A stretch of 64,000 nt of DNA, from the NCBI GenBank assembly GCA_902801525.1, contig CADCIN010000001.1, positions 34,583 to 98,582 of the forward strand, given 5' to 3'. Source of the DNA: an uncultured Erysipelotrichaceae bacterium. Its GTDB lineage: Bacteria; Bacillota_I; Bacilli_A; RF39; UBA660. Shown piece by piece: positions 2,520 to 4,599 of the stretch (the stretch's first letter is position 1; every line of letters begins with the position of its first letter). A program made the translations under genes and the position numbers. The notes under the pieces were generated by a model. That model saw only the letters and a list, made by a program, of their open reading frames with translations. It was not told where the DNA came from and did no database searches.

Positions 2520-2547
2520 GTAAAAAAAAGTCCTTTATGAGGACTTT
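2520..2547 (-). terminator. rho-independent terminator overlapping the htrA stop
   Basis: AAGTCCT-TTATG-AGGACTT stem-loop followed by a U-run on the minus-strand RNA. Confidence 0.55.
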
Positions 2548-3653
2548 CCTAATTTAACTGTTGCTTTCTTTTCTTTATTATCTCTATAATAAGTAATTTC
2601 CACTGTGTCTCCAGCTTTATGTTTATAAAGTTCATATCTTAGATGTGCATAATCTTTTACTTCATTACCATCTAATTTAGTTATTATATCTCCTGTTTTT
2701 AAATCAGAGTTAGCTGCACCTGTTCCTTTTTCAACACTTACAACTACTACTCCTTCTGGAGAGTTTTCTGGTATTTTTATATTATTAGCATATAGTTGTT
2801 CCTTACTAGTAGAGTTTGCCATTGCTATTCCTAGTAAAGGCCACTCTATTTTTTTACCTTTTTCTAGAGATTCAATATGTGACATTGCATATTCAATTGG
2901 AATAGCAAATCCCATTCCTTCTATTTCATCATCTACTAGTTTCATTGAACAAACGCCAATAACTTCACCATTTACATTTAAAAGTGGTCCCCCACTATTT
3001 CCTGGATTTATTGATGCATCTATTTGTAATACTTTCATTATCCAGTCACTTGTATTTGTACTTGTTACATTAACTGATACCATTCTATCTTTTCCAGATA
3101 AGATACCAGATGTAACACTTCCTCTATAATTTTCTCCTAGAGGTGATCCTACTGTAAATATTGTATCACCTAAATTCACTTTTTCACTATTGCCTATTGT
3201 TATAATTTGTTTTACATACTTTTTATCTATTCTTAAAACAGCTAAATCTAAATACTCATCTCCACCCATTACTTTAGCTTCAACTTGTTCATCATCTGTT
3301 GTAACTACTGATATATTTACTCCTTTTGATATTACATGTTGATTAGTTAAAATGTAACCATATTTATCATCTGCTTTATAGATAAAACCTGTACCTGTTG
3401 AAGAATCAGTTTTTATCATTACTACTGAATCATATACTTTAGAAATTGCTGATGATAAAGAAGTTTTTTCATATACTTGTTTTCCTCTACCTGATTTAAT
3501 TGTTTGAACAGTAGATGTTTTAATATCATCAAGTAGTGGAGTCCATTTTAGTATAGTTAATGAAAATACTCCACCAACTATAAATGAAAATACCATTAAG
3601 AAAAATATTGTAGTATTTTTTGTTTTTATTTGATTTTCATTTTTATTATTCAT
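2535..3653 (-). CDS. htrA: membrane-anchored trypsin-like serine protease with PDZ domain (HtrA/DegP family)
   Basis: N-terminal TM helix; S1C motifs (GNSGGPLLN, catalytic H/D/S context); C-terminal PDZ-like region (GVVVVSVEKGTGAANSDLKTGDIITKLDG). Confidence 0.85.
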   Translation of the reverse strand: MNNKNENQIKTKNTTIFFLMVFSFIVGGVFSLTILKWTPLLDDIKTSTVQTIKSGRGKQVYEKTSLSSAISKVYDSVVMIKTDSSTGTGFIYKADDKYGYILTNQHVISKGVNISVVTTDDEQVEAKVMGGDEYLDLAVLRIDKKYVKQIITIGNSEKVNLGDTIFTVGSPLGENYRGSVTSGILSGKDRMVSVNVTSTNTSDWIMKVLQIDASINPGNSGGPLLNVNGEVIGVCSMKLVDDEIEGMGFAIPIEYAMSHIESLEKGKKIEWPLLGIAMANSTSKEQLYANNIKIPENSPEGVVVVSVEKGTGAANSDLKTGDIITKLDGNEVKDYAHLRYELYKHKAGDTVEITYYRDNKEKKATVKLGKSS

Positions 3654-4599
3654 TAATTGTTACTTTCCTTTCTATTTTAGATAATTCTTTCCAATTTAAT
3701 GGGAATCCCATTTTATTTAATACTTTTTCTATTTTAATAGTTGTTAAATTATAATTTAGAGTTTGAATTACGCTTTCAAGTTCTAATGTCATATTTGAAA
3801 ACTCTGTTTTTGTAAGAAACTGTTTCATAATTATTATTAATGCGAATAAATCATTTTTACCTTTTTCGTATTCACCATCTATTTTCTTAATACCAAGTAA
3901 TTGGTGGAATACTGTATCATCAATACTTTTTTGAGTTTTATTATCATATAAAATATCTTCATGTGCACATAAATTTCGATAATTTGATAATATTGGTAAA
4001 TATGTTTCAAATTCTTCTACTTTAATTCCATAAATAGTACTTATTGCCTTTTGATCTTCATCCTTTAATATTGTAAACATTTCACTTACTATTCCAAATG
4101 ATAATACTTTTACTAAAATCCATAATGGAATATAACCATAATTAATTGCATAATGCTCAGTTGCAGTATGGTCTCTACCATTAATTCTTATTTGTCTTTT
4201 CATTTTCTTTAATAAATCATTTAATTGTCTTTGTTTTTCAGGATTTCTTGTAAAATTTTTACTTTTTAAATAATCTTTTTCACGATAACCATATTTTTTT
4301 GATAATTGGTATGATGTTATTGACTTAATATTATTTTCAATTACTAATAAATATTTAAATATTACATTTCTAAATGATCTATCAAATAAGAAAATGTTAT
4401 ATAATTCTTCAAATCTTGCTCCTTTAATAAAATTCTTTTCTTTAGGAGATTTATAAAGTAATTGTCTATATCCATTTATAAAGAAATAATTTTCTCTTAA
4501 TAATACTTTTTTTGCAAAAGCTTCATCACTGATTATTAATCCTTTAAATTTTAATATTTCAATTTGTTCATCTAATGTTTTGAATTGTTTTTCTATCAT
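3646..4599 (-). CDS. Abi2-family (AbiD/AbiF-like) abortive-infection protein; HEPN-type predicted RNase
   Basis: N-terminus KTLDEQIEILKFKGLII...FAKKVLLRENYFFINGY matches the Abi_2 family start; conserved Rx4H HEPN motif in SNYRNLCAHEDIL. Its stop overlaps the htrA start by 8 nt (ATGAATAA). Confidence 0.75.
   Translation of the reverse strand: MIEKQFKTLDEQIEILKFKGLIISDEAFAKKVLLRENYFFINGYRQLLYKSPKEKNFIKGARFEELYNIFLFDRSFRNVIFKYLLVIENNIKSITSYQLSKKYGYREKDYLKSKNFTRNPEKQRQLNDLLKKMKRQIRINGRDHTATEHYAINYGYIPLWILVKVLSFGIVSEMFTILKDEDQKAISTIYGIKVEEFETYLPILSNYRNLCAHEDILYDNKTQKSIDDTVFHQLLGIKKIDGEYEKGKNDLFALIIIMKQFLTKTEFSNMTLELESVIQTLNYNLTTIKIEKVLNKMGFPLNWKELSKIERKVTINE

Follow-up and report, generated by a model that had tools for sequence, protein, structure and literature searches.

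Proteins of the AbiD/F family that have been characterized belong to type III toxin-antitoxin modules, which consist of the protein and an upstream non-coding RNA (ncRNA) (PMC12373285, PMC13064643). Examples are RCd22 of C. difficile with its abiF motifs, and PbAbiF with its ncRNA; in the lactococcal systems the upstream regions are required owing to toxicity (PMC12373285, PMC13064643). Downstream of abi_2 genes as a group, genes for "posttranslational modification" are also enriched in a generic way (PMC12373285). This report concerns an open reading frame (ORF) of this family, termed abi, and the gene directly downstream of it, htrA, which encodes a membrane-anchored serine protease. Both are present in a 64,000-nucleotide (nt) stretch of DNA from an uncultured Erysipelotrichaceae bacterium (contig CADCIN010000001.1, positions 34,583–98,582), referred to here as the window. 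The abi-htrA pair is an operon that has been passed down in uncultured gut Bacilli, in at least about 100 lineages at the species level. The explanation favored here, with a probability of about one half, is that a HEPN RNase of the AbiD/F type has been recruited for a cellular function in a vertically inherited core operon, where it is dosed together with HtrA.

Organization of the abi-htrA operon

The coordinates of abi, htrA and other features of the window are given in Table 1. The two genes share an 8-nt overlap, ATGAATAA, which contains both the ATG of htrA (positions 3653–3651) and the TAA of abi (positions 3648–3646). A Shine-Dalgarno (SD) sequence for htrA, GAAAGGAG, is situated within abi and is coded by the conserved C-terminal residues I-E-R-S of Abi; it is found at the same place in most species. 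At the 5′ side of abi, the distance from the conserved −10 box to the abi ATG gives a predicted leader of about 20 nt. At the 3′ side of htrA, the terminator hairpin has a folding energy of −10.8 kcal/mol (z = −3.2), and none of 200 shuffled sequences was equally stable. This hairpin was missed by a simple pattern scan for terminators and was later confirmed by folding. A promoter scan gave background-level matches in this AT-rich DNA (29 found, 21 expected).

Because they share a predicted promoter, overlap, have an internal ribosome binding site (RBS) and are directly followed by a terminator, abi and htrA constitute a compact bicistronic operon that is translationally coupled. Other genomes and metagenomes yielded 101 distinct abi-htrA pairs. 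In 71 of these abi and htrA overlap, in 24 they are separated by 0–10 nt and in six by more than 10 nt. Thus in 95 of the 101 pairs the abi stop and the htrA start overlap or are at most 10 nt apart, an arrangement that is far above chance. An SD-like element is present 5′ of the htrA start in 96 of the pairs. An earlier note, made from the letters of the window, had proposed that the two genes are co-transcribed and coupled through the 8-nt overlap. The ORFs, the embedded SD sequence and the 95 pairs found elsewhere bear this out. The close coupling of stop and start is a conserved feature in its own right, suggesting that co-expression is under selection.

The intergenic region upstream of abi (positions 4600–4694) and its homologs at 62 loci contain two back-to-back extended −10 promoters, with TGTTATAAT on each strand. 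These are predicted to serve abi-htrA and the divergent gene for a Zn_dep_PLPC-like protein. On the abi side the pattern TATGnTATAAT-N9-AGGTGAG is kept in the 62 intergenic regions of other species. In many species there is also a conserved AAATTCAC-N-TTTCATACTTTT between the two promoters, which might be a regulator site or −35 regions common to both promoters. By eye, the 62 aligned intergenic regions showed no evident CIRCE, CtsR or CiaR-like operators.

Conservation of the abi-htrA adjacency

A collection with one genome per species was scanned with an Abi profile. A relative is encoded by at least 457 stretches, of which the best 80 were retained. These 80 loci all come from uncultured gut or rumen metagenome-assembled genomes (MAGs) labeled Bacilli, Mollicutes, Tenericutes, Erysipelotrichaceae or "Clostridium sp. 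CAG:417". In 79 of them HtrA is encoded directly downstream of abi on the same strand, as determined by tblastn. The sole exception is L041, in which an intact abi precedes a gene for an unrelated membrane protein. Upstream synteny, taken as EssC, three small ORFs, a SpoIID-like gene and the PLPC-like gene, is missing from eight loci that nevertheless retain the pair (L061, L063, L065, L070, L072, L076, L081 and L087).

A metagenome scan was seeded with the nearest outgroup Abi_2 proteins, and counts were made for loci having at least 1200 nt downstream of abi. Where Abi has 64% or more identity to the window protein, htrA is adjacent downstream at 75 of 76 loci; at 50%–64% identity it is adjacent at 30 of 37; and at the 22 loci of Abi_2 outgroups with less than 40% identity it is adjacent at none. 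Overall, about 105 of 113 loci of the clade show the adjacency. A reverse test was performed with seven HtrA homologs picked by HtrA similarity and contig extent alone, and all seven have an Abi_2 ORF overlapping or abutting their start. The adjacency, which had been proposed as a check on the pair with its absence elsewhere as the adverse outcome, is thus widespread whichever gene is used to find it.

Abi without an adjacent htrA is found at seven deep-branching loci in addition to L041. In such loci abi precedes small or polytopic membrane proteins (L100, positions 4971–7173; L141, 4365–6498; L041, 6001–7667). The I-E-R-S or I-E-R codons that form the htrA SD sequence are lost from the C-terminus of Abi where htrA is not adjacent (L041, L100 and L141).

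Sequence conservation and co-divergence

Relative to the corresponding protein of the window, identity at the 80 genome-scan loci is 63%–80% for Abi, 42%–64% for HtrA, 38%–59% for the PLPC-like protein, 26%–49% for the SpoIID-like protein and about 54%–70% for full-length syntenic EssC. When the 101 pairs are compared with each other, the median pairwise identity is 66% for Abi vs. 47% for HtrA; in 99.4% of 5050 comparisons the better-conserved of the two proteins is Abi. By these sequence measures Abi is the best-conserved gene of the neighborhood, and is under stronger purifying selection than HtrA, EssC and the other neighbors.

The distance matrices of Abi and HtrA are correlated (r = 0.69, Mantel p = 0.001). 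Abi co-diverges with HtrA, and the operon is vertically inherited across a radiation of low-GC gut Bacilli.

Within the Abi_2 family the clade is isolated as well. When a library clustered at 50% was searched, only one full-length representative had more than 50% identity to Abi (57%), and the next had 42%. Abi_2 proteins from plasmids and phages reach no more than 32% identity to Abi. The GC content at third codon positions of abi is 0.097, the same as that of its neighbors. One proposal had been that a housekeeping htrA was captured beside a mobile Abi gene. This proposal is wrong as well: the synteny of abi, its neighbor-like composition, its co-divergence with HtrA and its distance from plasmid and phage proteins show that the clade is not mobile.

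The same data bear on the reading that abi landed upstream of htrA in an ancestor, could not be excised without harming htrA, and has no selected function. Since the htrA RBS lies inside abi, removing abi cleanly would carry a cost. However, hitch-hiking of this kind would spare only the last ~30 nt of abi, whereas all 101 Abi orthologs are intact ORFs of about 315 aa, and 93 of the 317 columns of their alignment, including the catalytic site, are at least 97% identical. Abi is moreover intact where htrA is no longer adjacent. A neutral accident is therefore very improbable, and neutral hitch-hiking of abi is effectively excluded by the level of purifying selection.

The Abi protein

Abi matches Pfam Abi_2 (PF07751) with an E-value of 2.6e-40 (139 bits, the cut-off being 25.6). 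The PADLOC AbiD model is matched at 7.2e-60 (201 bits) over model positions 4–276 of 277, i.e. over its full length. A structure annotated as "Abi family protein" (PDB 8VZ6, chain 8vz6_A) is matched at 2.6e-17, and the segment RNLCAH of Abi aligns with RNSCCH of 8VZ6. The R-x4-H motif is present in 101 of 101 Abi orthologs, 98 of which have the form RNLCAHED. On these matches Abi is assigned as a full-length AbiD/F-family (Abi_2) HEPN protein, and the previous assignment of an Abi2 gene with the HEPN motif RNLCAH is upheld by both profiles and by the alignment.

With neither a signal peptide nor a transmembrane (TM) segment, Abi is predicted to be a cytoplasmic protein. It is probably a cytoplasmic HEPN RNase, and would be a dimer by homology to 8VZ6. 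An AlphaFold2 model gave a mean confidence score (pLDDT) of 46 from a shallow alignment of 12 sequences that are 74%–100% identical; the HEPN/AbiF-like fold of Abi is predicted solely from its sequence homology to the solved 8VZ6.

Search for an upstream ncRNA

The abiF motif (Rfam RF03085) was searched for in window positions 2000–5200 and gave no match at E-values up to 10, other than noise. It was not found at the gathering score in 11 loci of the clade, and RNAalifold showed no conserved RNA structure in the upstream region, the junction or control regions. The predicted leader of about 20 nt leaves no room for an upstream ncRNA. Thus no upstream ncRNA antitoxin is evident, although a trans-encoded RNA may exist elsewhere. 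The abiF motif is also missing, at the gathering score, from 19 outgroup loci. Its absence therefore separates the clade from characterized AbiF systems only, and not from all Abi_2 genes.

These results touch on a second reading, in which abi is a single-gene abortive-infection or type III toxin-antitoxin-like defense gene that became fixed in the lineage. The htrA locus would then supply a promoter and an anchor, with loss of Abi disturbing htrA expression, and HtrA would have no role in defense. Several features agree with this: Abi is a full-length match to the AbiD model with an invariant Rx4H, it persists without an adjacent htrA in L041, L100, L141 and others, its studied relatives act as a single protein with an RNA (PMC13064643, PMC12373285), and chromosomal Abi_2 can be near-core elsewhere, being present in 89% of S. 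aureus genomes (PMC12373285). Against it, the search for an upstream ncRNA antitoxin was negative and no space is left for one, there is no sign of horizontal spread, and the conserved stop-start coupling suggests selection for co-expression. Furthermore, Abi outconserves all of its housekeeping neighbors while HtrA drops to 47%, which is unusual for an arms-race protein. A fixed defense gene is considered rather unlikely.

The HtrA protein

HtrA consists of a K/N-rich cytoplasmic tail (aa positions 1–13), a TM helix (~14–36), a trypsin-like domain (81–258) and one PDZ domain (272–368). The Pfam matches, Trypsin_2 (2e-31) and PDZ_2 (5.5e-23), are both above their cut-offs; matches to the NCBIfam HtrA/DegP models (1e-61 to 6e-79) are under the equivalog cut-offs. 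The triad motifs TNQHV, DLAVL and GNSGGP are kept in 95–99 of 101 orthologs, the serine motif in 98. Judged by its architecture, HtrA is an ordinary Gram-positive-type protease of the HtrA family. No second trypsin-like ORF was found among the ORFs of 50 aa or more read at window positions 1–12000; nine ORFs were scanned in the remaining 52 kb.

Both the protease domain and the PDZ domain of HtrA are predicted to lie on the outer side of the membrane. Conservation along the protein is lowest in the cytoplasmic N-terminal tail (0.20), vs. 0.69 in the protease domain. The protease had been proposed as the sensor or activator of Abi, but with its domains outside the membrane and its tail so poorly conserved, this proposal finds no support. 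Cleavage or direct activation of Abi by HtrA is unlikely because the protease and PDZ domains are extracytoplasmic, Abi is cytoplasmic, and the HtrA tail is unconserved.

A broader form of this idea is a two-component defense or stress-suicide system, in which envelope damage, from phage adsorption or lysis or from secretion stress, would be sensed by membrane HtrA, which would signal to or activate the Abi RNase. The strictly conserved pairing and translational coupling, and the co-divergence of Abi and HtrA, would suit such a system. Trypsin-like proteases do occur in known defense systems (RT-Protease_XI, LmuA, HamA and Avs1b in PADLOC), and in some species variable or defense cargo is situated just downstream of the pair. 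However, the PADLOC matches of HtrA (5e-20 to 2e-3) are limited to the generic trypsin domain (~67–262), and the architecture is that of an ordinary Gram-positive housekeeping HtrA. The predicted location of its domains separates them from Abi, which has no export signal, and the part of HtrA that would face Abi, about 13 residues, is the least conserved. In addition, Abi is found alone in several lineages, and the distribution of the pair is core and syntenic, not patchy. A two-component system is thus quite improbable. The behavior of a defense pair, as the earlier note had envisaged, is not what the pair displays: it is core, slowly evolving and fixed in position, unlike a typical defense system.

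Chromosomal setting and the adjoining insertion

SecY, Adk, RpoA, L2, UvrA and UvrB are encoded in the window; SecY, RpoA, L2 and UvrAB confirm a chromosomal setting. On the 3′ side of htrA the window begins with a mobile insertion carrying a MobV/Mob_Pre relaxase (Table 1). Alignment with contig L004 places its breakpoint at 2435/2436, inside an Amidase_3 gene downstream of htrA. The insertion starts about 100 nt past the htrA stop, beyond the terminator.

Four contigs from other samples encode Abi and HtrA proteins that are 100% identical (tblastn), with different cargo downstream. In these contigs the cargo downstream of htrA is a MobV relaxase in one, like that of the window, a serine-recombinase element in two and TnpV in one. 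The possibility that abi-htrA is a member of the MobV island is ruled out by the breakpoint together with the other cargo in the conspecific contigs L002–L004. The pair had been described as lying within a relaxase-bearing island; the island is in fact a strain-variable insertion that adjoins it. The accessory, mobile or patchy context typical of AbiD/F modules was not found here, abi being syntenic in 79 of 80 loci and outside the insertion.

The Amidase_3 gene 3′ of htrA is an insertion hot spot, and other conspecific insertions occur elsewhere in the same gene (L002–L004, positions ~10100–12900). The sequence downstream of htrA differs in nearly every species, where CorA, Peptidase_C11, DUF5305 or SpaA are found, and one species has AbiEii with TnpV and a methylase. 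In the latter (L175, positions 4265–7188) AbiEii, TnpV and a DNA methylase are located at the hot spot.

Neighboring genes

The PLPC-like gene that shares the intergenic region with abi is syntenic in most loci; it is given as context, with no functional link to the operon implied. It stays beside abi in deep-branching relatives that have no adjacent htrA (L141, positions 3291–4268; L147). Therefore abi has two conserved neighbors, and the pairing of abi with the PLPC-like gene may be older than that of abi with htrA.

The SpoIID/LytB-like gene is present in a small, low-GC (26.7%) genome, with MAG relatives labeled Mollicutes or Tenericutes. Next to it is a type VIIb secretion system (T7SSb) locus. 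Its EssC has 1526 aa and FHA domains and matches TIGR03928 with 1002 bits, above the cut-off. The three small ORFs (85, 68 and 68 aa) have no Pfam match and are possibly YukD-like or WXG100-like.

Table 1. Features of the window (positions from its first nucleotide)
Feature	Positions	Strand	Basis or remark
Strain-variable mobile insertion, outside the abi-htrA unit	1–2435		MobV/Mob_Pre relaxase; interrupts Amidase_3 gene
MobV/Mob_Pre relaxase	1304–2350		Mob_Pre 2.5e-30, MobV 2.8e-34
Amidase_3 remnant, 14-codon stub	2436–2476		Breakpoint mapping
Intrinsic terminator, 11-bp hairpin over htrA stop codon, then U-run	2519–2550	minus	Folding
htrA	2535–3653	minus	ORF, 372 aa; second gene of operon
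abi/htrA overlap, 8 nt	3646–3653	minus	Plus-strand letters ttattcat
abi	3646–4599	minus	ORF, 317 aa; first gene of operon
htrA SD-like GAAAGGA	3666–3672	minus	Within conserved C-terminal I-E-R codons of abi
HEPN catalytic motif R-x4-H, RNLCAH, residues 208–213	3961–3978	minus	Sequence
abi RBS AGGTGA	4606–4611	minus	Read from sequence
Extended −10, TGTTATAAT	4618–4626	minus	Predicted promoter of operon, read from sequence
Zn_dep_PLPC-like gene, divergent, shares intergenic region with abi	4695–5666	plus	Pfam PF00882, 3.8e-11
SpoIID/LytB-like protein	5710–6750		TIGR02870, 108 bits, under its cut-off
T7SSb locus	6765–12036		EssC and three small ORFs; syntenic with abi-htrA in most related species
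AAA_14 + DUF4143 ATPase	32108–33385		ORF, 425 aa; between housekeeping blocks

Proposed role of the operon

In the favored explanation, an AbiD/F-type HEPN RNase, which is normally a mobile toxin restrained by an ncRNA, would have been fixed in the ancestor of the lineage and recruited as a core cytoplasmic RNase. One transcript and coupled translation would tie the amount of Abi to that of HtrA, a protease of envelope quality control. The likeliest role of Abi would be a latent, stress-triggered growth brake that cleaves RNA, or else RNA processing, co-expressed in either case with the envelope-stress protease.

A more specific version can be given only a slim chance. Here the domesticated AbiD/F HEPN toxin would be a lineage-wide stress RNase tied to envelope quality control, by analogy with Ire1 and regulated Ire1-dependent decay (RIDD). 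When the load on the envelope goes beyond the folding capacity that HtrA monitors, or when the envelope is damaged by attack from phage or the T7SS, Abi would cut RNAs and so slow protein synthesis or secretion, with no ncRNA antitoxin to hold it back as in its mobile relatives.

Several points weigh against recruitment of Abi as a core RNase. Membership in AbiD/F and an intact catalytic site fit a fixed antiphage gene equally well. Retention of Abi at the seven deep-branching loci and L041 shows that coupling to htrA is not obligatory for Abi function. The pair borders a variable region that sometimes holds true defense genes, as with AbiEii and the methylase in L175. The spread of the operon in the lineage is gauged from a count of stretches that encode a relative (at least 457), not as a fraction of species. 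HtrA is taken as the housekeeping copy from its architecture and the small size of the genome. Finally, the carriers are all uncultured MAGs, and the function of Abi is predicted from its sequence.

For an "Abi" gene the comparative evidence is unexpected and very strong, and the function proposed from it is a prediction. The AbiD family and the HtrA family are each already known; what is new is an HtrA-coupled, putatively domesticated AbiD/F clade. The PADLOC AbiD model (7e-60) would flag a defense system in every genome of the lineage, although the clade behaves as a core gene. Defense-system counts in these uncultured Bacilli would therefore be inflated and are to be read with care. The clade would also be a natural case of a probable toxin turned core gene, with no usual ncRNA partner, with stronger constraint than its neighbors, and hard-wired to htrA. 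Relatives of AbiF are at present under discussion as the ancestors of Cas13, and abi-htrA may represent another evolutionary fate of this scaffold. What is proposed is that, in Firmicutes-like bacteria, RNA cleavage in the cytoplasm is connected to protein quality control at the envelope.

Comparison with known systems

The KEN domains belong to the HEPN superfamily (Anantharaman et al. 2013, PMC3710099). Ire1 and RNase L can be compared with abi-htrA as a functional analogy, in which a HEPN RNase is tied to extracytoplasmic or lumenal quality control of protein folding. Unlike Ire1 and RNase L, abi-htrA shows no fusion and no kinase; the link is purely genomic, by co-expression, and signaling is hypothetical.

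Protease-containing defense systems (the RT-protease UG/Abi class XI, Lamassu with LmuA, and Avs1) also have a trypsin-like domain beside a defense-type effector. They differ from the window locus in that no reverse transcriptase (RT), STAND ATPase or Lamassu (LmuB/SMC) partner is present in its neighborhood, and in that its HtrA is membrane-anchored and outward-facing with a PDZ domain, which is the classical quality-control HtrA.

The housekeeping HtrA proteins of Gram-positive bacteria (S. pneumoniae, L. lactis, and HtrA/HtrB/HtrC of B. subtilis) have the same TM anchor, His-Asp-Ser trypsin-like domain and single PDZ domain. The best NCBIfam matches of the window protein are to HtrA models but under the equivalog cut-offs, which indicates a distant ortholog. 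The htrA genes of model Firmicutes are not known to lie in an operon behind a HEPN/Abi gene. No paper was found in the library searched that links Abi_2, AbiD or "Abi family protein" with HtrA, in agreement with the earlier view that abi-htrA is not a standard described defense pair.

The closest described systems are AbiD, AbiD1 and AbiF, i.e. those of Lactococcus plasmids, AbiF of C. difficile phi027, and PbAbiF of Prevotellaceae (8VZ6). Abi of the window shares with them a size of about 300 aa and a full-length match, the HEPN Rx4H at the same position, and an N-terminal F-x-T-x-D/E-E-Q-I. Abi belongs to AbiD/F by sequence, yet the pair shows neither the upstream ncRNA nor the accessory or mobile context of the characterized modules. 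It differs from them in having at most ~32% identity to plasmid and phage members and no upstream ncRNA or abiF motif found, and in being chromosomal, syntenic, vertically inherited, slower-evolving than its housekeeping neighbors, and coupled to htrA.

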